A DNA stretch of 64,000 nt from contig CADBUX010000002.1 in NCBI GenBank assembly GCA_902797995.1, forward strand, positions 7,031 through 71,030. Direction: 5' to 3'. The stretch is from an uncultured Erysipelotrichaceae bacterium (lineage in GTDB: Bacteria > Bacillota_I > Bacilli_A > RF39 > UBA660). The position numbers and the translations under genes were made by a program. Numbering within the stretch: position 1 is the stretch's first letter; the number at the start of each line of letters is the position of its first letter. This document shows, piece by piece, positions 1-15,120 of the stretch. The notes under the pieces are model-generated. The model was not told where the DNA came from. It saw only the letters and a list, made by a program, of their open reading frames with translations, and made no database searches.

Positions 1-1
1 T

Positions 2-469
2 AGAGTAAATAGTAAAAATGAATTTAATGTTCCATTTGGAAAGAAATCTAAGGTAAATACCTACGAAGGGCAAAACCTAGGTATTATTTGTGGCTATCTT
101 AACTACAACAATATTAAGTTATTATCAACAGATTTTGAAGAAGCAGTAAAAGATGCTAAAAAAGGTGATTTTATATATTTTGATCCACCATATGATTCAG
201 ATACTTCTACATTTAATAGTTATACAGAGGATGGCTTTGGAAAAGAAGAACAAAAAAGGCTTTCTAGGGTATATAAGAAACTAGCTGACAAAGGATGTTA
301 TGTAATGCTTTCAAATCATAATACAAAGCTAGTTAACGAGTTATATAAAGAATTTAATATAAATGTTATTGAAGCTAAAAGAAATATAAATTCTAATGGC
401 GCAAAAAGAGGTAAAGTTGAGGAGGTAATTATAACAAATTACAAAAATAATAAGGTGTTTGATGAATAA
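2..469 (+). CDS. dpnM: Dam-family N6-adenine DNA methyltransferase (GATC), DpnM / M1.DpnII-like; 5' end outside window
   Basis: Frame 2 is open from the window edge to TAA 467-469. The translation (RVNSKNEFNVPFGK...GDFIYFDPPY...CYVMLSNHNT...EEVIITNY) matches the C-terminal half of S. pneumoniae DpnM as I recall it, including the DPPY motif. It is followed by dpnA and dpnB homologues in the canonical DpnII order. Confidence 0.85.
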   Translation, partial: RVNSKNEFNVPFGKKSKVNTYEGQNLGIICGYLNYNNIKLLSTDFEEAVKDAKKGDFIYFDPPYDSDTSTFNSYTEDGFGKEEQKRLSRVYKKLADKGCYVMLSNHNTKLVNELYKEFNINVIEAKRNINSNGAKRGKVEEVIITNYKNNKVFDE

Positions 470-500
470 GTAGTGTATAATATATATGGAGGTATACATC

Positions 501-1265
501 ATGAATGAATTAAAATACTATTACGATGAGAAAAACTTTAAACTGATCAAAGGAGATTGTCTAGAAATATTAAAAAATATAGAACCTAATAGTATTGATA
601 TGATATTCGCAGATCCTCCATATTTTTTATCTGGAGATGGTATAACTTGTAGTGCTGGTAAAATGGTTAGTGTAAAAAAAGGTAACTGGGATGAAAAAAT
701 AGAAATAAAAGAAAAACATGAATTTAATAAAAAATGGATCAACTTATGCAAAAACGTTTTAAAAGATAACGGAACAATTTGGATAAGTGGTACTATGCAT
801 AATATTTATTCAATTGGTATGGCACTTGAAGAAGAAGGCTTTAAAATAATAAACAACATAACATGGAAAAAATTAAATCCACCTCCAAATATAAGTTGTA
901 GAGCTTTTACACATTCTACTGAAACCATTCTTTGGGCAAAGAAAGATTTGAAAAGAGCTAAACATAAATTTAATTATGAAATAATGAAAGAGCTAAATGG
1001 GGGAAAACAAATGAAGGATGTATGGGAAACATCTCTAACTAAACCTAGTGAAAAGAAATGTGGAAAACATCCTACACAAAAACCCATAGAACTATTAGAA
1101 AAAATAGTTTTAGCATCAACTGATGAAAATGATTTAATACTTGATCCATTTAATGGAAGTGGAACAACAGGAATTGTAGCAAACAGATTAAACAGAAGAT
1201 ATATTGGAATTGAAAAAGAAAAAGAATACTTAGATTTAACTATAAAAAGAAAGGAAAGTGATTAA
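501..1265 (+). CDS. dpnA: Second DpnII-system DNA methyltransferase (DpnA / M2.DpnII-like, beta-class amino-methyltransferase)
   Basis: ATG 501 follows GGAGG (489-493); the track start at 486 lies inside that SD. IFADPPYF near the N-terminus and FNGSGTTG near the C-terminus give the beta-class motif order. The sequence is nearly colinear with my recollection of DpnA (HEFNKKW, WISG..HNIYS.GMALE.EGFKI.NNITW, KHPTQKP). Confidence 0.9.
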   Translation: MNELKYYYDEKNFKLIKGDCLEILKNIEPNSIDMIFADPPYFLSGDGITCSAGKMVSVKKGNWDEKIEIKEKHEFNKKWINLCKNVLKDNGTIWISGTMHNIYSIGMALEEEGFKIINNITWKKLNPPPNISCRAFTHSTETILWAKKDLKRAKHKFNYEIMKELNGGKQMKDVWETSLTKPSEKKCGKHPTQKPIELLEKIVLASTDENDLILDPFNGSGTTGIVANRLNRRYIGIEKEKEYLDLTIKRKESD

Positions 1266-2114
1266 ATGAAAAGAGATTTTGATAAGTGGTTAAGTAAGTT
1301 TAAAAAGAGTATATCTAATTATACATACTATGTTGATTTTGAAAAAATATATAAAAATGTAGATAAAGTAAAAGTTGAACTTAATATTTTAAACTCATTA
1401 ATAGGTAGCAAAAATATAGAAAAAGAATTTGAACAAATACTACTTAAATATCCTGAAACTTTAGAGTGTATTCCGTTGCTATTAGCAGTACGTTCTAGAG
1501 AAATATTTGTTAAGGATGAAATAAATGAATACTTATTTAAATTTGATAAAATGGTGTATTCAGTGAAAGATTATATTAGATTTATGAATGAAAGTGGACT
1601 TTTTGATTTATTACAAAATCATATTATAAATAACTTATATGATTATGTTTTAGGAATAGAAGTTGGACTAGATTCAAACGGCAGAAAAAATCGTGGCGGA
1701 CATTTGATGGAAGACTTAGTTGAAAGTTATATTAAAAAGGCAGGTATTAAAGAATACTATAAGGAAATGTATCTTAATGAAATTGAAGAAAAATGGAATT
1801 TAGACTTATCTGCAATGTCTGGTGATAATGTCTCTACAAAAAGATTTGATTTTGTAATAAAGACAGATAAGCAAGTATATGTTATAGAAACTAATTTTTA
1901 TTCAAGTGGAGGTTCTAAATTAAATGAAACTGCAAGAAGTTATAAAATGCTTGCAGAAGAATCACAAAAAGTAAAAGGTGTAACATTTATTTGGTTTACT
2001 GATGGTTTAGGTTGGATAGGAGCTAAAAAGAACTTAGAGGAAACATTTAATGTATTAGAAACTATTTATAATATAAATGATTTAGAAAATGGGATTCTCG
2101 AAACTTTGAAATAG
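1266..2114 (+). CDS. dpnB: Type II restriction endonuclease, DpnII/MboI family (GATC)
   Basis: ATG abuts the dpnA stop. The strings LNILNSLIGSKNIE, GLFDLLQNH, GRKNRGG, KRFDFVIK, NFYSSGGSKLNETARSYKM and YNINDLE match R.DpnII as I recall it. Confidence 0.9.
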   Translation: MKRDFDKWLSKFKKSISNYTYYVDFEKIYKNVDKVKVELNILNSLIGSKNIEKEFEQILLKYPETLECIPLLLAVRSREIFVKDEINEYLFKFDKMVYSVKDYIRFMNESGLFDLLQNHIINNLYDYVLGIEVGLDSNGRKNRGGHLMEDLVESYIKKAGIKEYYKEMYLNEIEEKWNLDLSAMSGDNVSTKRFDFVIKTDKQVYVIETNFYSSGGSKLNETARSYKMLAEESQKVKGVTFIWFTDGLGWIGAKKNLEETFNVLETIYNINDLENGILETLK

Positions 2115-2128
2115 AATAAGTAAAAAAA

Positions 2129-2178
2129 TAAAATATCCATGGAAATATATATATATGATAAACTATGGATATTTTTTT
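2129..2178 (+). terminator. Rho-independent terminator after dpnB
   Basis: AAATATCCAT (2131-2140) pairs with ATGGATATTT (2165-2174) and is followed by a T-run through 2178. Confidence 0.6.
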
Positions 2179-2216
2179 AATTGATTATATGTTGTTATAT
2201 AAGAGAGTTGAAGGTT

Positions 2217-2254
2217 ATATCCATAAAACAAACCATGTTTTATGGATATATTTT
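2217..2254 (+). terminator. Second strong hairpin (14-bp stem) with the same ATATCCAT/ATGGATAT core, followed by TATTTT
   Basis: ATATCCATAAAACA (2217-2230) pairs with TGTTTTATGGATAT (2236-2249), loop AACCA. Confidence 0.5.
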
Positions 2255-2399
2255 GTATGTACAAAATAAGAATTCTGGAATAGATAATCATTAGTCCATA
2301 AGCAATTGAACTATGTTAGTCCGGAATTGTCTTATCCTGCTTTAGTAAAAATGCAACAAAAATATTTAAATTTTATCCAAGTAGAAAGGAGTATGAAGT

Positions 2400-2583
2400 A
2401 TGAAAAGATTTAACTTTTATATGCCAGATGATTTATATCAAAGAATATCTATTATGGCAAAAAAATATAACTTGGCAGAACTAAAATGACGATTTATTAG
2501 AAATAGGTTATATTAAATTTTTAGATATTGGAAATAAAGTAAGTGAATTAGAGGGAAAATATAAGATAATCGACAACTCATAA
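2400..2583 (+). pseudogene. Frameshifted ribbon-helix-helix (CopG/Arc-like) small gene
   Basis: SD AAAGGAG then ATG 2400 gives MKRFNFYMPDDLYQRISIMAKKYNLAELK, stopping at TGA 2487-2489. Another frame continues as DLLEIGYIKFLDIGNKVSELEGKYKIIDNS up to TAA 2581-2583. The joined sequence looks like one RHH protein. Confidence 0.4.
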
Positions 2584-2586
2584 AAT

Positions 2587-2631
2587 AGTAATATTACGAT
2601 GTAATTAAATATCTATAACTTATGGTATAAT
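2587..2631 (+). promoter_or_regulatory. Promoter of the WYL operon with -35-overlapping operator-like motif AGTAATATTACGATGTAATTAAA
   Basis: Extended -10 TGGTATAAT at 2623-2631. The motif at 2587-2609 contains the inverted repeat ATTAC-N3-GTAAT. A near-identical 23-mer sits at the same distance from the -10 at 4264-4286. Confidence 0.55.
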
Positions 2632-2649
2632 GATTATAAGGTGATTGAA

Positions 2650-3123
2650 ATGTCTAAATTATCAAATACAATAATGTTACTTAGATTACTTCAAAATGGG
2701 AAAAAGTATAGTATTAAAGAACTAGCAAATGAACTTGAAGTATCACCAAGAATGATTAGAACATATAAAAATGAATTGGAGTGTGCAGGAATATATATTG
2801 AATCTATTAGAGGTCCTTATGGTGGCTATTATTTAAATCAAAATATCAAATTACCAGAGAATATTAATAAGTCAAAAATTATACCTGTAAATAAAGAATA
2901 TTATAATTCACTTAGTAAAGCTATTAATAATAGAAATAAATGTTATATTGAGTATTATTCTAAAGAACATGATAGTATAACTAAAAGAGTTATTAGACCA
3001 TATGAACTAATTGTCTTAGATAATGAATGGGGTGTTGCAGCTTTCTGCGAGAATAAACAAGAAATTAGACATTTTTATTTAAATAGAATTAGTAAACTTG
3101 AAATTTTGGATGGAATTTATTAA
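2650..3123 (+). CDS. Short HTH + WYL-domain transcriptional regulator (YafY/BrxR/CapW-like architecture)
   Basis: ATG 2650 follows AAGGTGA; the track start is GTG 2641. The N-terminal stretch LLRLLQNGKKYSIKELANELEVSPRMIRTYKNEL is HTH_11-like. The C-terminal stretch KRVIRPYELIVLDNEWGVAAFCENKQEIRHFYLNRI is WYL-like. Confidence 0.7.
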   Translation: MSKLSNTIMLLRLLQNGKKYSIKELANELEVSPRMIRTYKNELECAGIYIESIRGPYGGYYLNQNIKLPENINKSKIIPVNKEYYNSLSKAINNRNKCYIEYYSKEHDSITKRVIRPYELIVLDNEWGVAAFCENKQEIRHFYLNRISKLEILDGIY

Positions 3124-3177
3124 TGTGACATAAATACTTCCTCTTATAGTGTTAGACTTTCATTAGGAGGAGATAAT

Positions 3178-3696
3178 ATGTTATTTATAGATTTTGATGG
3201 GGTTATATTAGATACTGAACCATTACTATTTGAAGAATGGAGAAAAAACCCAAATAGGCATAGCCTTCCAGAAATAGAAAAGATAAGATATATTCAAAAT
3301 TCTAATTGGGAACACATTATAAATGATTCAGAGGTAATTAACGATTCTATATATTATTTAAAACACTTAGATTCATCTACTTCATTCATTTTAACAAAAA
3401 TACATTCATTAGAAAATGAAGCAAAAGAAAAAGTTAGATGGTTAAGAGAAAAAGGTGTTAAGCAAGATGTTATACTTGTACCATATTATTTTAAGAAAAG
3501 TGATATAGTAGATGCTAGAGGTAATATATTAGTCGATGATTGTCTTAAAAACTTGGATGAATGGAACAATTGTGATGGAAAATCTATATTCTTTGATATG
3601 GATAATGATAATATTGATAGCTGGCACCAACCGAATAAAAAAGGGTATCAAAGGGTATTATCGTTATCTACTTTTGTAAAAAAGGAAGGCAATTAG
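3178..3696 (+). CDS. HAD-superfamily hydrolase, possibly 5'(3')-deoxyribonucleotidase-like
   Basis: SD GGAGGAG lies upstream. It has HAD motif I (IDFDGVILDT) and a late acidic motif (ILVDDC). Its size and prophage-type context resemble NT5C/YorS-like nucleotidases. Substrate is not inferable. Confidence 0.55.
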   Translation: MLFIDFDGVILDTEPLLFEEWRKNPNRHSLPEIEKIRYIQNSNWEHIINDSEVINDSIYYLKHLDSSTSFILTKIHSLENEAKEKVRWLREKGVKQDVILVPYYFKKSDIVDARGNILVDDCLKNLDEWNNCDGKSIFFDMDNDNIDSWHQPNKKGYQRVLSLSTFVKKEGN

Positions 3697-3697
3697 T

Positions 3698-4186
3698 ATG
3701 ATAAAGCTAGGTCAATATAGAGATCCATGGTTATCTGAAAAATGTAATGATGTAATAGGATTTTATCCAAGAGAATTTTATCCACTTGATAATTTTTCGT
3801 CTTTCAAAGTAGAATGGAACGGATATTTATATTCAACACTTGAAGAAGCGTTTCAAAGCAGATTATTTTTACCAGATTATATTGGTATTGCAGAACAAAT
3901 TAAAAATAGTCATTCAGCTCATGAAGCACAGCAAATAATGTTTGAAAATATAAATAAAGTTAAATATTCTAATGAAGAACAAGTACTTATTATGGAAGAA
4001 TTACTAAGACTTAAAATAGAACAAAATCCATATGTAAAAAAGAAATTACTTCAAACTGGTGATTATTTGATAGTTGAAGATTCTCCGAAAGATTCATTTT
4101 GGGGATGGGGTCCTAATAGGAATGGCGAAAATCAATTAGGTAAATTATGGATGAAACTTCGAGATGAATTAAAAAATCAAAAATAG
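3698..4186 (+). CDS. NADAR (YbiA/DUF1768) domain protein
   Basis: LDNFSSF...W.G..Y.T.EEAFQ...F and DSFWGWG..R.GENQLGKLWMKLRDEL parallel E. coli YbiA motifs (FSNF, W.T.EHYFQ, D.YWG.G..G.G.N.LG..LM.LR). The start is 2 nt after the upstream stop, so the genes are probably co-translated. Confidence 0.75.
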   Translation: MIKLGQYRDPWLSEKCNDVIGFYPREFYPLDNFSSFKVEWNGYLYSTLEEAFQSRLFLPDYIGIAEQIKNSHSAHEAQQIMFENINKVKYSNEEQVLIMEELLRLKIEQNPYVKKKLLQTGDYLIVEDSPKDSFWGWGPNRNGENQLGKLWMKLRDELKNQK

Positions 4187-4263
4187 TAATATGCTCGAAA
4201 GATTAAGATATTTTTGAGTATTTAGGTGAGAGATAATCTCATCTTTTTCATTGTTCTATTTTT

Positions 4264-4309
4264 AGTAATATTGCAATGTAATTAAAGTGTTAAGAATTTG
4301 TGTTATAAT
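4264..4309 (+). promoter_or_regulatory. Promoter of the 4333 gene with second copy of the operator-like motif (AGTAATATTGCAATGTAATTAAA)
   Basis: The motif at 4264-4286 matches 21 of 23 positions of 2587-2609. Extended -10 TGTGTTATAAT at 4299-4309. Confidence 0.55.
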
Positions 4310-4332
4310 GAAAATATAAGGCTGTGATTTAG

Positions 4333-4635
4333 ATGAAGATAATAACAATTTGTGGAAGTTTAAAATTTCAAAAAGAAATGATGGAAATGGCACAAAAATT
4401 AGCATTTGAAGGTAATTGTGTTTTGACTCCCACTTATCCTGTACTAAAAGATATAACTATAACTGATAAACAAATAAAACATTTAAAAGATGAACATTTT
4501 AAAAGAATAGAGTTATCTAATGCAATATTTGTTATTGATAAAAATAGTTATATAGGCGATAGTACAAATTCAGAAATAGAATATGCAAAAAAGTTAGGGA
4601 AAGAAATATTATATTATTCTAATTTATTTAAATAA
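4333..4635 (+). CDS. Small nucleoside 2-deoxyribosyltransferase-like (NDT/Rcl-fold) protein
   Basis: N-terminal MKIITICGSLKF and C-terminal GDSTNSEIEYAKKLGK resemble the glycine-rich N-terminal loop and the G.S/T..E...A catalytic-Glu motif of the NDT/DNPH1-like family. This is motif recognition only. Confidence 0.45.
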   Translation: MKIITICGSLKFQKEMMEMAQKLAFEGNCVLTPTYPVLKDITITDKQIKHLKDEHFKRIELSNAIFVIDKNSYIGDSTNSEIEYAKKLGKEILYYSNLFK

Positions 4636-4710
4636 TCTTTACTTGGATGATTAAGATATTACGATGGTCACACAATTATTTAAATTAGGTGTTTTATGTA
4701 AAAAAGAAAA

Positions 4711-4950
4711 GATGACATCAACCGACACTTTTTTATGATAAAATGTTATTGTAGATATGTATATTATAAATAGTATCGTTTATAATCACTTTTTTGTGAT
4801 AAAATTGTATTGTAAGATAATCAAAATAAATAGTATACACAATGTCCGGAAAAAGTGTGGTAATATGGTATTGTAAAATAATTAGATGCATAGTATACGC
4901 CAGTTCCGGAAATTATATGGTAATATGGTATTGTAGAAAAAAATATAATT
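4711..4950. repeat. Four tandem ~60-bp direct repeats (iteron-like array) upstream of the replication-initiator gene
   Basis: Units start at about 4711, 4771, 4831 and 4891. TAGTAT recurs at 4771/4831/4891, and (G/T)TATTGTA recurs at 4746/4807/4868/4928. Each unit contains a TGnTAAnAT -10-like box. Units 3 and 4 also contain TCCGGAA. Confidence 0.8.
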
Positions 4951-5011
4951 ATAACAATTTGAAAGGGAGAGTTATCTTCCTTTTTTTGTTGCTTGAAAAG
5001 GAGGGCTATGA

Positions 5012-5398
5012 ATGAAAAGAGCAAAACCAGGATATTATGCAATAATACCTAGTGAGGTTAGATATGACAAAGATTTAACTGCAAATGAAAAACTGTTATA
5101 TGGAGAAATAAATGCTTTATCTAATCGGGATAACTATTACTGGGCAAGTAATAGTTATTTTTCATCTTTATATGATGTAGCACCAGAAAGTGTTAGTAGG
5201 TGGATAAGGCATTTAAAAGATAAAGGTTATATAAATGTAAATTATGACTCTTCTAAACGAACAATAAATATTAACAATAGTGTTAATGAATCCTTAACAA
5301 GAAAGTTAAAGACTCATAACAATAATGTTAAATATAATAATAAAAATAATAATATAAATGAAATATTTGAGGAGGTGAGGATAAAAAATGACTTTTGA
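5012..5398 (+). CDS. HTH (HTH_36-type) replication-initiator/replisome-organizer-like protein
   Basis: SD AAAGGAGGG. LTANEKLLYGEINALS...WASNSYFSSLYDVAPESVSRWIRHLKDKGYI is the pattern of phage/plasmid initiator N-terminal winged-helix domains. Confidence 0.6.
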   Translation: MKRAKPGYYAIIPSEVRYDKDLTANEKLLYGEINALSNRDNYYWASNSYFSSLYDVAPESVSRWIRHLKDKGYINVNYDSSKRTININNSVNESLTRKLKTHNNNVKYNNKNNNINEIFEEVRIKNDF

Positions 5399-5747
5399 AC
5401 AGCTTAAAGAAATACTTACTAATATAAAAGCACATTATCAGAATTTTGCTATTTATGATTATGTTGTAAAAGAGTGGTATAAAGTGTTAAAAGATTATGA
5501 GTTTGATGATGTGATGGAAAGCTTAGTAGATCATTTAACTAGTGATAATAGTAATGAATTACCCAAAGCATATCAATTAGTTAAATATCTAACACCAGAA
5601 GATTTAAAGAAGGAATGCGAAAGTAATAGATACATAGTATCCTGTAATTTATGTGATAGATGGATGAGTTTAGCTGAGTTTGATAAACATTATGATAAAT
5701 GTTTACATGAGTTTGGAAGAAAATTTAAAAATACAAAAAGTGTTTAA
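5388..5747 (+). CDS. G39P-like replicative-helicase loader/inhibitor domain protein
   Basis: HYQNF......V.EWYKVLKDYEFDDVMESLVDHL parallels the phage SPP1 G39P family signature (YPNF...W...L.DY.YE.V..AL..H). It overlaps the upstream gene by 11 nt. Confidence 0.55.
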   Translation: MTFEQLKEILTNIKAHYQNFAIYDYVVKEWYKVLKDYEFDDVMESLVDHLTSDNSNELPKAYQLVKYLTPEDLKKECESNRYIVSCNLCDRWMSLAEFDKHYDKCLHEFGRKFKNTKSV

Positions 5748-5793
5748 GTCATAAAATTAAGTGACTTATTTTTATTTGAAAGGAGAATAAACT

Positions 5794-5958
5794 ATGAATT
5801 ATGAAATTAATTACTTTTTTGGAGAAGAAGATATAAATGAAATATTAATTGAGGTTTTATTAGATAAAATAAGTGAAAATAGTTGTAATAATCATGAAAA
5901 TAATTTAATATCAAATTGTACTTATTTTTCTCTACAAGAAGGAGGATATAGTGTTTAA
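5794..5958 (+). CDS. Small hypothetical protein (54 aa) overlapping the recombinase start
   Basis: SD AAAGGAGAA then ATG 5794; MNYEINYFFGEEDINEILIEVLLDKISENS...; not in the ORF track because it is below the length cut-off. Coding status is uncertain. Confidence 0.3.
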   Translation: MNYEINYFFGEEDINEILIEVLLDKISENSCNNHENNLISNCTYFSLQEGGYSV

Positions 5959-7513
5959 TGTAGAGAATATAGTAAATCCAAGTGCTGCCCTTTATATTCG
6001 TTTATCTTCAGAAGATAAAGAAAAACAAAACGAAAGTGAAAGTGTAACTAATCAAAGAAGTATACTTTTAAGGTATGCAAAAACTAATAACATAAGAGTA
6101 TACGATATATATATTGATGATGGCTTTACTGGTACTAATTTTGATAGACCTTCTTTTAAAAGAATGATTGATGATATTGAATCCAAAAAAGTAAACATAG
6201 TTATAACTAAAGATATGTCTAGACTAGGCAGGGATTATATTGTAACTGGGGAATTAATGGAAAAATATTTTCCTTCAAAAGGTGTTAGATATATTGCAAT
6301 TAATGATGGAATTGATACATTTATAGATAATGGTATTAATGAAATCACTCCTTTCAAAGCAGTAATAAATGACTATTATGCAAGAGATATTTCAAAAAAA
6401 ATCAGATCAAGCCTTCAAGCAAAAATGAAAGATGGTAAGTTTGTTGGAGGAAGAACTCCATATGGTTATGATAAAGATTCAAAGAATAAAAATCATTTAG
6501 TGGTTAATAAAGAACAAGGGAAAGTGGTTAAAAGAATCTACAATTTAGCGCTTTCTGGTCTTACTGCATATAAAATTGCTAGTTTACTTACTAAAGAGAA
6601 AATAAAAACTCCTGCACAACATTATGATTTTGATTGGAGAGCAAACCATAACTATAAATATGGAATCTGGCATAGTTCTACTGTTAAAGATATACTTACC
6701 AATAGAATCTATACTGGAGATTTAATTCAAAATAAAAGAAGAAAAGTAAATTACAAAGTAAAAAAGATTGTATACAATAATCCTAATGAACACATCATTA
6801 TAGAAAATACACATGAAGCTATAATTGATAAAGAAACATTTAATAAAGTTCAAAAATTAATACCTAAGAATGTGGGTAGAAACGAAAAGAAAGAACATTT
6901 CTTACTTGAAGGACTTCTTTATTGTGGTGACTGTGGACATAGAATTTCTGTTATGCCAAGAAAGAAAAATAACAACCTATGTTATACTGATTGCAATTAT
7001 AATAGAACTTATAGAAAAGAAAAGTTATGCACACCGCATTGTAATAATTATGATAAATTAGAAGCTCAAATATTATCTTCTCTAAAAGAAATTTGTTTAA
7101 AGTATGTAGATAGAAATAAAATATTAAAAGAAGTAAATAATAAAAAGACAAAAAAGAAAGAGAAAACAAAAGATGAAGTACTAATTATTTCAAATAGAAT
7201 AGATAGTATTAATAATAATTTAGATGAAATATATATGGATAAGTTAAATAAAGTAATTGATGAGGATAGGTTTGTTAGAATAAAATCAAAATTAGAAAAA
7301 GAATTAAGTGTAGCACTAGAAGAACAAAAAAGATTACTTGATAATAATAAAAATAAAATAAGTGAGAAAACTGAAGAAGAAAAGATGAATAAATATATAA
7401 ATGAATTTTTAAAATTTGATAATATAGATAGAGATTTAATAGTTAATTTAATTGATAAAATAGAAATTTTTGAAGATAAAAAAATCAACATTAAATTAAC
7501 TTTCGGGAATTAA
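5951..7513 (+). CDS. Large serine recombinase (resolvase catalytic domain + recombinase domain + zinc ribbon + coiled coil)
   Basis: GTG 5951 follows GGAGG. AALYIRLSSEDK with catalytic Ser, then SVTNQR, DDGFTGTNFDRPSFKRM and TKDMSRLGRDY form the resolvase core. LLYCGDCGHR...C...C is the Zn ribbon, and the tail is K/E-rich coiled coil. Confidence 0.9.
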   Translation: MFNVENIVNPSAALYIRLSSEDKEKQNESESVTNQRSILLRYAKTNNIRVYDIYIDDGFTGTNFDRPSFKRMIDDIESKKVNIVITKDMSRLGRDYIVTGELMEKYFPSKGVRYIAINDGIDTFIDNGINEITPFKAVINDYYARDISKKIRSSLQAKMKDGKFVGGRTPYGYDKDSKNKNHLVVNKEQGKVVKRIYNLALSGLTAYKIASLLTKEKIKTPAQHYDFDWRANHNYKYGIWHSSTVKDILTNRIYTGDLIQNKRRKVNYKVKKIVYNNPNEHIIIENTHEAIIDKETFNKVQKLIPKNVGRNEKKEHFLLEGLLYCGDCGHRISVMPRKKNNNLCYTDCNYNRTYRKEKLCTPHCNNYDKLEAQILSSLKEICLKYVDRNKILKEVNNKKTKKKEKTKDEVLIISNRIDSINNNLDEIYMDKLNKVIDEDRFVRIKSKLEKELSVALEEQKRLLDNNKNKISEKTEEEKMNKYINEFLKFDNIDRDLIVNLIDKIEIFEDKKINIKLTFGN

Positions 7514-7674
7514 AATACTACATAATACGGCATAGCCATATTTGTCCAATAAGAACAAAAATAGTTAATCATCATATTTATAAACATACATATAGACCAG
7601 CATATTCTTGTTGTGAAGAAAATGTTTGTTCAGAAATTCAATGCGGTTCATGCTGCAATTTTAATTAATGGTTT

Positions 7675-7700
7675 AAAAACTGTCATACGACAGTTTTTTT
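7675..7700 (+). terminator. Rho-independent terminator
   Basis: AAAACTGTC-ATAC-GACAGTTTT followed by a T-run. Confidence 0.75.
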
Positions 7701-7723
7701 GTTATAATAAAATAGGTGATAAA

Positions 7724-8107
7724 ATGAAAGCATTAACAATTAAGGAGCCATGGGCTTCATTAATAGTCGAAGGATATAAAAAATATGAATTTAGAAGTTG
7801 GAAAACTAATTACAGAGGTAAAATATTAATTCATGCAGGGAAAAGTATCGAAAAAGATACATTAAAAAGATTTGAAAGTTATAGTTTAAACATATTACCA
7901 GGATACATAATCGGAGAGGCAGAGCTTACTGATTGCATATTAGTAGATAAACAGTTTAACGAACAACTAAGAAATATCGACTCTATAGTTTATGGAAAAA
8001 GTAATCACACAGAAACTTATGCCTGGAAACTGGAGAACATTATTAAATATGATAAGCCAATACCTGTAAAAGGAAAGTTAGGATTATGGAATTATAAAAA
8101 TAAGTAA
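7724..8107 (+). CDS. ASCH (PUA-like) domain protein
   Basis: ATG 7724 follows AGGTGA. MKALTIKEPWASLIVEGYKKYEFRSW...ILIHAGK is the canonical ASCH N-terminus. The track's upstream extension (7613) runs through a terminator, so I rejected it. Confidence 0.7.
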   Translation: MKALTIKEPWASLIVEGYKKYEFRSWKTNYRGKILIHAGKSIEKDTLKRFESYSLNILPGYIIGEAELTDCILVDKQFNEQLRNIDSIVYGKSNHTETYAWKLENIIKYDKPIPVKGKLGLWNYKNK

Positions 8108-8197
8108 AAAAAACATAAAAATGGTAATTTTTGGTAATTGCCATTTTTATATTGAAAAAAGTATCTAATATTATACAATGTACTAAGGAGGTAAAAA

Positions 8198-8434
8198 ATG
8201 GAAACAGAAAAGATTTTAGCAGAACTTGAATACAAGTTCATATGCGATTTTATAAGAATAAGAAAAGATAATAATTTAACTCAACAAGCATTGGCGGACC
8301 TTTCAGGAGTAGTAAGAGAAAAAATTACAAAAATAGAAAACGGATTAAACTCACCACAACTAAACTCCTTAATAAAAGTTTTAGAACCTATTGGTTACAC
8401 TATCAAAATAGTACCAATAACAAAAGAGGATTAA
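8198..8434 (+). CDS. XRE-family HTH transcriptional regulator
   Basis: SD AAGGAGG. IRIRKDNNLTQQALADLSGVVREKITKIENG is the Cro/C1-type HTH signature. Confidence 0.8.
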   Translation: METEKILAELEYKFICDFIRIRKDNNLTQQALADLSGVVREKITKIENGLNSPQLNSLIKVLEPIGYTIKIVPITKED

Positions 8435-12772: not shown

Positions 12773-13252
12773 ATGCAAACAAAAACAATTAAGGATGAAA
12801 TAGATTTTAACAATGTATACTTTGGATTTGAGATAGGGCAAAATTATGACTATAAAAATGGAGACTATTACACATTTGCAGACATAGTCATTCTAGAAAA
12901 AACAAGCTATACGAAAGAACAAGATAACGATATCACTAATATATATGTAGATCTTTTAACAAATAAATTATACTGTTTAAATAGTAAAAATAAAGTATTA
13001 AATAATTATAATTCTAATATTATTAATAATTACATTGAAGATATAATTAGTGTCACTGATTTGTTTGAGGAATACAAAAGCATTAACAACTCCACTTATA
13101 ATGACCTAATTAATAAATTCGAAGGAAACAGTATAATATCTAGAAAGTTATTTTTTGAAAACATAAACAAAATAATTGACATTAAAGATTATGTGGACAA
13201 ATATAAAGAAGAAAAAACAAGCAGTAAAGTAAAGGTAAAAACAATGAATTAA
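12773..13252 (+). CDS. Hypothetical protein (159 aa)
   Basis: It has an SD (AGAGGTG) and a downstream terminator hairpin. No motif recognised. Confidence 0.5.
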   Translation: MQTKTIKDEIDFNNVYFGFEIGQNYDYKNGDYYTFADIVILEKTSYTKEQDNDITNIYVDLLTNKLYCLNSKNKVLNNYNSNIINNYIEDIISVTDLFEEYKSINNSTYNDLINKFEGNSIISRKLFFENINKIIDIKDYVDKYKEEKTSSKVKVKTMN

Positions 13253-13362: not shown

Positions 13363-15120
13363 ATGTTAAAATTAGTTAAAAAATTAACCAAGAAACAAAT
13401 AATATTAATTCTAATAAGTGTTATTTTTGTTACCTCTCAAGTTTGGCTTGATTTAAAAATACCAGATTATATGAATGAGATAACAAAATTAATTCCACAA
13501 AAAGGTACTACTATTAAAGATATACTAAAACCGGGAAGTACTATGGTTTTCTGTGCTTTTGGAAGCCTTTTATCATCAATAATCGTAGGATATTTTGCAG
13601 CCTACATCGCAGCATCTTTTGCGTATAATTTAAGAAAAGATGTTTTTAGAACAGTAGGGAAATTTGGGATGGAAGAAATTAAAAACTTTTCAACAAGTAG
13701 TTTAATTACTAGAACCACTAACGATATAACTCAAGTAGGAACATTAATTTCTATGGGACTTCAAGTTATAATAAAAGCCCCAATTATGGCGATCTGGGCA
13801 ATTACTAAGATTGCAGGTAAAAGTTATGAATGGAGTATAGCAACTACAGTAGCAATACTAGTTCTAATAATACTTATTCTAGTAATAGTACTAATTGCTT
13901 TACCTAAATTTAAAAAGATACAGTGGCTAACTGATAACTTAAATAGAATAACTCGTGAAAATTTAACGGGCATTCGTGTAGTACGTGCTTATAATGCCGA
14001 AAACTATCAGATGAAAAGATTTGAAGAAGCAAACGAAGAACTTACTAGTACACATCTATTTACCTCTAGAATTATGGCGATAATGAATCCAGTAATGACC
14101 ATAATTATGTCGGGATTATCACTATCCATATATTTTATTGGAGCTTATTTAATTAATGAAGCAAATATGATGGATAAAATAAATTTATTTAGTGACATGG
14201 TAGTGTTTTCAGCATATGCTATGCAAGTAGTAATGGCTTTCATGATGCTAAGTATGATTTTTATCATCTATCCACGTGCAAGTGTATCTGCTAAAAGAAT
14301 AAATGAGGTGTTAGAAACAGAAACATCTATTAAAGAGGGACCCAAAGAAAAGACAGAAGAAACTGGTACAATTGAATTTAAAAATGTATCATTCAAGTAT
14401 CCAGATGCTGAAAATTATGTTTTAAAGGATATAAGCTTCAAAGCAAAAAAAGGACAGACTATAGCCTTTATAGGAAGAACCGGAAGCGGAAAAAGTACTG
14501 TAATTAATCTAATACCCAGATTATATGATGCAACCGAAGGTGAAGTTTTAGTAGATAACTTAAATGTAAAAGAATATAAAGAACAAAGTCTTAATGATAA
14601 AATTGGATACATATCTCAAAAAGCAATCATGTTTAAAGGAACTATAAAAGAAAACGTTGCTTTTGGTAAGAAAAACAATAAAAAAGTATCAAAAGAAAAA
14701 GTAAAAAAAGCAATTGAAATAGCGCAAGGAAAAGACTTCGTAGAAAAACTACCAAATTCGTACAACTATTCTTTAGCAGAATCTGGCACTAATATAAGTG
14801 GGGGACAAAAACAAAGGCTATCTATAGCTAGAGCCATAGCAAGAGACCCTGAAATATATATATTTGATGATTCATTTAGTGCTCTTGACTATAAAACAGA
14901 TTTTATGCTAAGAAAAAACTTGAAAAAGTATACAAAGGATGCAACAGTAGTAATAGTAGCGCAGCGTATAGGCACAATTAAAGATGCAGATCAAATATTT
15001 GTAATCGAAGATGGAGAACTTGTAGGCTCTGGTACTCATAAAGAGTTAATAAAAAAATGTGATATATATAAAGAAATAGCCCTTTCACAATTAGGAAAGG
15101 AGGAAATAGAAAATGCATAA
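13363..15120 (+). CDS. ABC transporter permease/ATP-binding protein (type I exporter half-transporter)
   Basis: ATG 13363 follows GGAGG; the track's 13282 start spans the promoter. A six-TM region is followed by Walker A GRTGSGKST, signature ISGGQKQR and Walker B IYIFDD. Confidence 0.9.
   Translation: MLKLVKKLTKKQIILILISVIFVTSQVWLDLKIPDYMNEITKLIPQKGTTIKDILKPGSTMVFCAFGSLLSSIIVGYFAAYIAASFAYNLRKDVFRTVGKFGMEEIKNFSTSSLITRTTNDITQVGTLISMGLQVIIKAPIMAIWAITKIAGKSYEWSIATTVAILVLIILILVIVLIALPKFKKIQWLTDNLNRITRENLTGIRVVRAYNAENYQMKRFEEANEELTSTHLFTSRIMAIMNPVMTIIMSGLSLSIYFIGAYLINEANMMDKINLFSDMVVFSAYAMQVVMAFMMLSMIFIIYPRASVSAKRINEVLETETSIKEGPKEKTEETGTIEFKNVSFKYPDAENYVLKDISFKAKKGQTIAFIGRTGSGKSTVINLIPRLYDATEGEVLVDNLNVKEYKEQSLNDKIGYISQKAIMFKGTIKENVAFGKKNNKKVSKEKVKKAIEIAQGKDFVEKLPNSYNYSLAESGTNISGGQKQRLSIARAIARDPEIYIFDDSFSALDYKTDFMLRKNLKKYTKDATVVIVAQRIGTIKDADQIFVIEDGELVGSGTHKELIKKCDIYKEIALSQLGKEEIENA

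Follow-up and report, generated by a model that had tools for sequence, protein, structure and literature searches.

A WYL-headed HAD-NADAR operon and a separately promoted NDT-fold gene: a candidate damage clean-up regulon on a serine-integrase island of an uncultured Erysipelotrichaceae bacterium

The four genes and their associations

Research on ADP-ribosylation has yet to settle the physiological role of stand-alone bacterial NADAR proteins. We describe here the gene for such a protein and its three neighbors in a window of 64 kb (64,000 nucleotides; coordinates are positions in this window unless another locus is named) on contig CADBUX010000002.1 of an uncultured Erysipelotrichaceae bacterium. 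On the forward strand of a serine-integrase island, an operon encodes a short HTH-WYL transcription factor of 157 amino acids (aa) (2650-3123), a predicted HAD-superfamily phosphatase of 172 aa (3178-3696), and a YbiA-type NADAR protein of 162 aa, a predicted N-glycosidase or ADP-ribosylglycohydrolase (3698-4186). A minimal NDT/DNPH1-fold protein of 100 aa (4333-4635) is encoded downstream as an independent cassette, also on the forward strand. The source annotations are silent on all four proteins (open reading frames [ORFs] within 2650-4635). A preliminary description of this DNA, made from its letters alone, had proposed the same four ORFs and the same folds, and both were confirmed here by domain calls with Pfam, structure models from AlphaFold2 (AF2), and structural comparison with Foldseek.

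That description had also presented the genes as a four-gene module, which is not what is seen in other genomes. We examined 80 species-level loci anchored on NADAR orthologues of 58 to 83% identity, in 75 of which the stand-alone NADAR ORF was mapped, and 80 metagenome loci anchored on HAD homologues. A WYL gene lies directly 5' of NADAR in 16 of the 75 ORF maps. Across the 80 NADAR-anchored loci, the HAD gene is adjacent only once (L012, a HAD-NADAR fusion that falls outside the 75 maps), and the NDT-fold gene is never adjacent. The HAD-anchored sample has a WYL gene upstream in approximately 8 loci, NADAR adjacent in 4, and the NDT-fold gene within 6 kb once. WYL-HAD pairs are present in L030, L091, L103, L107, L114, L128, and L147, and the WYL-HAD-NADAR trio is present in L012, L105, and L116. 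What recurs is a WYL gene followed by NADAR, HAD, or both; as a set of four, the genes are not conserved.

The coupling between HAD and NADAR goes further in three loci, where the two are fused into one uninterrupted ORF of 338 to 340 aa (L012 5111-6109, L115 123-1121, and L116 5983-6999), which is strong evidence that they act on the same substrate. The fused ORF lies 3' of a WYL gene in L012 and L116, and the fusion in L115 starts 122 nucleotides (nt) from the contig end. Other phosphohydrolases occupy this place elsewhere, with a CYTH-domain protein between WYL and NADAR in L025 (642-1232) and a His_Phos_1 protein directly 3' of NADAR in L017 (8507-9088) and also in L018. The wider surroundings of the NADAR orthologues consist mostly of housekeeping genes such as those for SecA, RF2, and pyruvate phosphate dikinase (PPDK), and no relatives of the NADAR or HAD subfamilies were found in 2.9 million viral contigs.

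The NADAR domain (PF08719; 1.1e-21) spans residues 28 to 159 of 162, leaving no N-terminal extension, and the ATG of its gene lies one base past the HAD stop codon. The closest solved relative is E. coli YbiA (3e-13 with the single sequence and 1.5e-15 with a profile), aligned over YbiA residues 15 to 158, and the DarG1-type structure 8bau matches at only 0.035. NADAR families differ at the catalytic position in the last strand, which is Glu in the YbiA type, Asp in the DarG1 type, and His in the phage type (PMC11543638, PMC11125620). Column statistics over 76 family sequences, the window included, show conservation of E49, E127, D132, and W135, with the catalytic Glu and Asp residues invariant. 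E127 aligns with the Glu of the YbiA "VEH" motif, and all 75 orthologues aligned at this column have it, one further row being gapped. The protein scores 67.4 bits against TIGR02464, "riboflavin intermediates N-glycosidase," with a cut-off of 73.7.

The window protein resembles YbiA of the E. coli dinG-ybiB-ybiA region in its bare fold and in the Glu at the family-defining position. The likeness would extend to control by a regulator of the DNA damage type, since E. coli ybiA belongs to a LexA-controlled, damage-induced operon (PMC11125620, PMC12945103). It differs in standing under a WYL protein rather than LexA, in being partnered or fused with a HAD protein, in having lost a conserved lysine (see below), and in scoring below the TIGR02464 cut-off. 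With DarTG1 (the DarT1 toxin and DarG1 antitoxin) and phage AdfN, it has in common the NADAR fold and a possible reversal of base ADP-ribosylation, but its catalytic residue is Glu and not the Asp of DarG1 or the His of the phage enzymes, and it has no N-terminal DNA-binding extension. No DarT or other ADP-ribosyltransferase (ART) domain was found among the called neighbors in the window or in L001-L010. The anti-phage system DS-32 combines a NADAR protein with a phosphoribosyltransferase; the window protein reaches 52.8 bits against the DS-32 NADAR model NF053876, which has a cut-off of 240, and no phosphoribosyltransferase is present in the neighborhood (window and L001-L010). The locus is neither DarTG1 nor DS-32. 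The statement in the preliminary description that the gene combination matches no named system holds, as no curated defense model recognized it.

The regulator consists of an HTH_11 domain (residues 10 to 60; 1.3e-9) and a WYL domain (PF13280; residues 84 to 152; 5.4e-15), and it ends at residue 157, five residues past the WYL domain, with no C-terminal WCX domain. Regulators of the wHTH-WYL-WCX type, such as BrxR, CapW, DriD, and PafBC, have approximately 290 to 330 aa and dimerize through a C-terminal WCX domain. The closest relatives of the window protein are 150 to 210 aa long, and forms of 305 to 335 aa are more distant. Its best solved relatives are PafBC (8.7e-9), BrxR (1e-4), and CapW, and it has the HTH and WYL sensor in common with the activators DriD and PafBC as well as with the repressors CapW and BrxR. 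A mobile or defense-type neighborhood is a further likeness to BrxR and CapW. The HTH is highly conserved among orthologues across species.

The HAD protein stays under the Pfam cut-offs (HAD_2, 9e-4), but HAD motifs I to IV (D5/D7 of the DxD motif, T73, K107, and D120-D121) are invariant in 20 homologues, and an AF2 model with a pLDDT of 95 matches HAD-IA structures. The nucleotidase-like look ascribed to it earlier comes solely from a match to phrog_2643 ("5'-3' deoxyribonucleotidase"; 1.6e-11). A specific nucleotidase assignment from solved structures was sought and not obtained, the Foldseek matches being to generic HAD-IA structures.

For the 100-aa protein, the AF2 model has a pLDDT of 90, and the top 27 Foldseek matches are NDT, DNPH1, or 7m5h, the structure of a conserved E. 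faecalis protein of unassigned function (probability of 1.00; TMq of 0.63 to 0.75). The predicted structure thus superposes on those of NDT and DNPH1 (Rcl) with TMq of 0.66 to 0.75, although the protein is shorter (100 aa compared with 135 to 165 aa) and its matches to sequence models, DUF4406 (7.7e-3) and Nuc_deoxyrib_tr (PF05014; 0.064), are below threshold. A profile search against the PDB gave no NDT match and an hhalign comparison with a DNPH1 sequence was not significant, so the fold assignment is taken from Foldseek only. An invariant E81 stands in the motif GDSTnxEIEYA, as a motif resemblance and nothing further. Homologues with 70 to 85% identity adjoin unrelated genes (among them acetyltransferase/SpoVA, GATase/HD, Fic, APH, and BLIP), and the viral contigs hold four distant relatives only.

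A shared promoter box and the junction between cassettes

The preliminary description had noted that both promoters carry the same operator-like motif, and this is correct. The 23-nt motif AGTAATATTRCRATGTAATTAAA occurs exactly twice in the 64 kb (at 2587 and 4264), with no copies expected from shuffled sequences, and both copies lie 40 to 41 nt 5' of an extended -10 element of the form TGnTATAAT. Promoter box copy 1 (2586-2609) consists of the near-palindrome TAGTAATATTACGA, in which GTAATATTAC forms a perfect 10-bp palindrome, and of TGTAATTAAA, and it stands where the promoter of the WYL operon would have its -35. The extended -10 of the operon, read from the sequence (TGGTATAAT; 2623-2631), is not accompanied by a -35 hexamer, and the same TGnTATAAT layout is found in orthologous WYL operons. 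Promoter box copy 2 (TAGTAATATTGCAATGTAATTAAA; 4263-4286) lies 5' of the NDT-fold gene, followed by the extended -10 of that gene (TGTTATAAT; 4301-4309), likewise read from the sequence. Between the two promoters, a terminator scan placed an intrinsic-terminator-like hairpin with a T-run (4224-4244), which would end the WYL-HAD-NADAR transcript and splits the locus into two transcription units. All of these elements are on the forward strand.

The box is not confined to the window. A core version lies 38 to 41 nt before TGnTATAAT, again in promoters without a -35, upstream of NDT-fold homologues and of genes for a CPBP protease, a MazE/AbrB-like protein, and an ASCH protein, and the fixed distance is kept in five unrelated gene families. 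Looser copies without the fixed spacing precede GNAT and MerR genes. The spacers between box and extended -10 are constant in length and variable in sequence, which argues for a role in transcription. Upstream of the NDT-fold homologues in L182, L185, and L187, the box is kept despite unrelated flanks. The WYL activator DriD works with a similar layout: in promoters that have no -35 of their own, the pseudo-palindrome that it binds takes the -35 position and keeps a fixed distance from the -10 (PMC13004042). Two tandem box variants (TTAGTAATATTACAT) were also observed at 1485 and 1527 of L150, 68 and 110 nt 5' of a distant HAD homologue (40% identity). The half-site TCGTAAT could suggest a Zur or Fur box, which has a 7-1-7 spacing; the spacing here is 7-0-7 and the downstream genes form no metal regulon, and this reading was set aside.

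Copy 2 is part of a larger element that separates the NADAR and NDT-fold genes. Approximately 10 nt past the NADAR stop lies a 3' box (CGAAAGATTAAGATATT; 4196-4212, forward strand), recognized from a junction alignment of the window with L185, L028, and L107 and from a pattern count, and it forms the left part of a junction with the terminator hairpin at its center. The junction has approximately 110 to 125 nt and the order of stop codon, 3' box (ATCGTAAGATTAAGATATT), terminator hairpin (GGTGAGA...TCTCATC), T-run, 5' box (TAGTAATATTACGAT), and promoter with extended -10. It is found in the window at 4188-4328, in L185 at 6303-6419, 7416-7518, and 8191-8278, in L028 at 13038-13162 and 13496-13573, and in L107 at 34-115. 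The 3' and 5' boxes both approximate the palindrome ATCGTAATATTACGAT. A second 3' box (ATGATTAAGATATT; 4647-4660, forward strand) lies 12 nt past the stop of the NDT-fold gene and is also present 3' of its homologues in L182, L185, and L187. In different species, the junctions part unrelated small genes in tandem arrays (three or four in L185 and at least two in L028), and the cassettes seen with it encode the NDT-fold protein, ASCH, GNAT, CPBP, MazE/AbrB, MerR, and WYL-HAD-NADAR.

We rejected the idea that the junction is an attC-like site or a structured RNA, since the terminator hairpin is the only consensus structure in the alignment and no pairing is predicted between the outer boxes. An integron-type array finds no support in the neighborhoods of the arrays, where no IntI-type gene recurs, and Rfam gave no match in the window between 2000 and 5200. 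The junction pattern is absent from the 2.9 million viral contigs. The junction may be two sites for a regulator, a site of recombination, or a mobile module of promoter and terminator. It is a speculative and improbable suggestion that it marks a hitherto undescribed system in gut Bacillota, integron-like with a dedicated regulator, of single-gene cassettes that can be swapped and have a promoter each, in which the short WYL factor would co-ordinate the cassettes as a damage or conflict regulon. The junction may help to explain the shuffling of small accessory genes in gut lineages that, like these, have been little studied.

A predicted clean-up regulon and its alternatives

We find that the locus is best explained, with a probability of roughly 0.5, as a stress- or damage-inducible clean-up regulon of phosphatase and N-glycosidase, carried by the island as two separately promoted cassettes. 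The first would be the operon of the short HTH-WYL factor, the HAD phosphatase, and the YbiA-type NADAR N-glycosidase, in which WYL followed by NADAR is the evolutionarily conserved and probable functional unit and the phosphohydrolase is optional. The second would be the 100-aa NDT-fold protein, which the same explanation, at the same odds, treats as a co-regulated add-on and not as a core part. HAD and NADAR together would most likely take off a phosphate group and cut an N-ribosyl bond, clearing nucleotides or nucleic acids of adducts of the phosphoribosyl or ADP-ribosyl type or breaking down damaged nucleotides. WYL regulators sense single-stranded DNA (PMC11804915, PMC11662680), and from what is known of PafBC, DriD, and CapW, the WYL domain here probably senses single-stranded DNA or a related damage signal. 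From promoter architecture and co-occurrence, the likely target of the WYL protein is the palindromic box that stands in for the -35 at a fixed distance from the extended -10, and binding would switch both promoters on or relieve repression. Such a clean-up could shield the host or the island from ADP-ribosylating toxins or from metabolite damage.

The closest parallel in the literature is a set of predicted systems centered on ADP-ribosylglycohydrolases (ARG) and described by Iyer, Burroughs, Anantharaman, and Aravind in 2022. In these systems a WYL or Nudix regulator accompanies an ARG and a phosphatase, in some cases with a HAD 5'-nucleotidase and occasionally with NADAR, and they were predicted to be host countermeasures to ADP-ribosylation (PMC9503650, section 3.8). 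The window locus is like them in its WYL regulator, in the tightly coupled or fused phosphatase, for which a HAD 5'-nucleotidase is one listed option, and in the lack of a linked ART, and their embellishments vary, NADAR being an occasional one. It is different in that none of the four proteins or their neighbors has an ARG domain and NADAR is the core enzyme, in that the regulator has no WCX domain, and in that chaperone and restriction endonuclease modules are missing. The ARG-centered systems, themselves only predicted, were described from Actinobacteria and Proteobacteria, whereas the present loci are from gut Bacillota. Since there is no ARG domain, the locus cannot be counted among those systems. 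It would instead extend the theme of a WYL regulator, a deconjugating enzyme, and a phosphatase from ARG to NADAR and to gut Firmicutes. A YbiA-type NADAR that is found repeatedly under a WYL sensor and is coupled, sometimes fused, to a phosphatase leads to testable hypotheses on both the signal and the adduct, and the promoter box is a tractable candidate operator for a minimal WYL regulator that lacks WCX.

Several observations weigh against this explanation, in which all enzyme and regulator roles are predictions from sequence, modeled structure, and promoter layout. The first concerns the substrate. The NADARs studied have a conserved Glu and Lys pair (E43/K50 in PnNADAR), of which the Lys contacts the pyrophosphate of ADP-ribose and is essential (PMC11543638). 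In the window protein the Glu is the invariant E49, the Lys position is Leu56 (3863-3865), and among the 76 aligned sequences it is Ser in 26, Leu in 17, and Lys in 17. As the residue is mostly Ser or Leu in the orthologues, the substrate may be something other than a canonical ADP-ribose conjugate. For the HAD protein, Pfam gives no NT5C match, and Foldseek and PDB profile searches return generic HAD proteins only. The regulator, at 157 aa, is without the 3HB and WCX parts that DriD uses.

The link between the regulator and the box has observations on both sides. In its favor, in the 160 NADAR- or HAD-anchored loci, which were not selected by the motif, intergenic boxes occur in 5 of the 24 loci that contain a WYL gene and in none of the 136 that lack one, and the Fisher p value of 5e-5 ignores kinship between loci. 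Against it, approximately 25 orthologous WYL operons (68 to 87% identity) do not have the box 5' of themselves, the 23-mer matching there with 6 to 11 mismatches at best, and their promoters consist of a terminator hairpin followed by TGnTATAAT. This type of regulator is thus, unlike others of the WYL family, usually not found behind its own box, and only this island shows an arrangement that fits autoregulation through it. The motif as a universal WYL autoregulatory operator was dropped for this reason, and a factor other than the WYL protein could bind the box.

An alternative is that the shared motif is not a WYL operator at all. It could be one end of a mobile or recombinogenic junction between swappable cassettes, or the site of another regulator, and the four genes would then be linked by cassette history only. 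It is the whole junction, and not the box alone, that is kept between unrelated genes and species in the window, L185 (three times), L028 (twice), and L107, and the two copies in the window, identical over 24 nt, are more alike than copies at other loci, as if one had been copied recently. Other WYL operons do without the box, and L182, L185, and L187 have boxes although no WYL gene lies in the 3 to 11 kb examined of each. The constant spacer length, which points to transcription, the restriction of boxes in the 160 loci to those containing a WYL gene, the folding of the terminator hairpin only, with no attC-like outer stem, and the lack of a dedicated recombinase recurring beside the arrays all speak against it, and we consider it possible but on the unlikely side.

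A rather less probable alternative is that the island encodes a counter-defense function or an orphan antitoxin, in which NADAR, aided by HAD, would undo the ADP-ribosylation of DNA or RNA that a recipient host or a competitor brings about with DarT1-, YarT-, or pierisin-like toxins and so let the island or its host survive. The position on a mobile island beside a restriction-modification (R-M) system and a variable AAA_15 slot fits such a role. YbiA-type NADARs remove G- and C-ADP-ribose in vitro and can be antitoxins (PMC11125620, PMC12945103), and an orphan immunity function has been proposed for NADARs that stand alone (PMC11825919). On the other side, the window protein is of the YbiA and not the DarG1 type and its phosphate-binding Lys is not conserved, the orthologues occupy housekeeping contexts in most species with no ART gene near any locus, and phage and viral contigs have no member of the subfamily. 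The defense or counter-defense role put forward in the preliminary description therefore lacks direct support, also because the scores against defense models are low: 52.8 versus 240 for DS-32, and in PADLOC weak generic matches only, including the candidate PDC-M42C (3.4e-7).

Ordinary control of metabolite damage among riboflavin or nucleotide intermediates, with the island location incidental, is doubtful. NADAR would then act, like E. coli YbiA, on 5-phosphoribosylamino-pyrimidines, and the HAD protein would be similar to ARPP-type phosphatases. YbiA being the best solved relative and the TIGR02464 score falling just under its cut-off are consistent with this, the HAD-NADAR fusions suit a phosphoribosyl substrate, the lost pyrophosphate-binding Lys suits one without ADP, and the NADAR orthologues are found in chromosomal housekeeping contexts. 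However, there are no rib genes nearby and no FMN riboswitch (Rfam, 2000-5200), WYL control is typical of damage and conflict responses, the partner phosphohydrolases vary, and the genes lie on a mobile island. A stand-alone anti-phage system that depletes or sanitizes (modified) deoxynucleotides through a nucleotidase and an N-glycosidase is very unlikely, for while the genes lie beside an R-M system on an island, WYL regulators head BREX and CBASS, and PDC-M42C and the DS-32 NADAR model are matched weakly, the four genes are not together elsewhere, no curated defense model fits, the contexts are those of housekeeping genes, and none of the genes is an effector that would obviously be toxic or cause abortive infection.

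The mobile island and its surroundings

The preliminary description had placed the genes as cargo on a recombinase element, and this is borne out by comparison with related loci. Positions 1 to 7660 of the window are 98.7% identical to L001 and L003, while the downstream chromosomal flanks are approximately 75% identical, which means that the genes are genuine cargo of a mobile, horizontally transferred island. The shared block has 9.26 kb (L001 4699-13963), giving an island of approximately 9.3 kb, and its right end is at approximately 7660, about 147 nt past the recombinase gene. More than 20 metagenome contigs encode a NADAR protein identical to that of the window, and each has the same gene block, in the order variable gene, Dam, N6_N4 methyltransferase, DpnII, WYL, HAD, NADAR, 100-aa gene, rep-like gene, two small genes, and large serine recombinase. 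A megablast search of positions 1 to 8200 against phage and plasmid collections gave no match.

The DpnII cassette reported alongside the genes is indeed there. Pfam and the gene order in L001-L010 identify an N6_N4 methyltransferase of the DpnII-type R-M system (486-1265; N6_N4_Mtase, 7e-64) and the DpnII endonuclease (1266-2114; 8e-111), both on the forward strand, and the Dam-type methylase of the island lies mostly 5' of the window start. The slot 5' of the Dam methylase is variable in L001-L004, where it encodes a 272-aa protein or, alternatively, an AAA_15 ATPase of 580 aa. Between the R-M genes and the WYL operon (2400-2583) is a ribbon-helix-helix-like gene with an apparent frameshift, where a 29-aa ORF (MKRFNFYMPDDLYQRISIMAKKYNLAELK) resumes in another frame as LEIGYIKFLDIGNKVSELEGKYKIIDNS. 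The gene stops 3 nt 5' of promoter box copy 1, and every near-identical contig has the 29-aa ORF among its gene calls as well.

Downstream of the NDT-fold gene is the replication and integration backbone of the island (4726-7660, forward strand), delimited by repeats, PHROG matches, and the block boundaries. A repeat search found four direct, iteron-like copies at approximately 60-nt spacing (4726-4949) directly 5' of genes for a replication-initiator-like protein (5012-5398; phrog_19658, 5e-24) and a helicase-loader-like protein (5388-5747; phrog_2289, 5e-7), and the island for this reason looks replicative. A 54-aa ORF lies between the helicase-loader-like gene and the large serine integrase/recombinase (5951-7513; phrog_95, 8e-99), all in the same orientation.

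The island and its surroundings are polymorphic. A segment just past its right end (7661-8415), with an ASCH gene and an HTH_3 gene, is missing in L001 and L003. In L058 (8001-8865), a NADAR orthologue is directly followed by an ASCH gene with 68% identity to the one in the window (7721-8107) and a patatin gene lies nearby, an arrangement that echoes the genes flanking the island.

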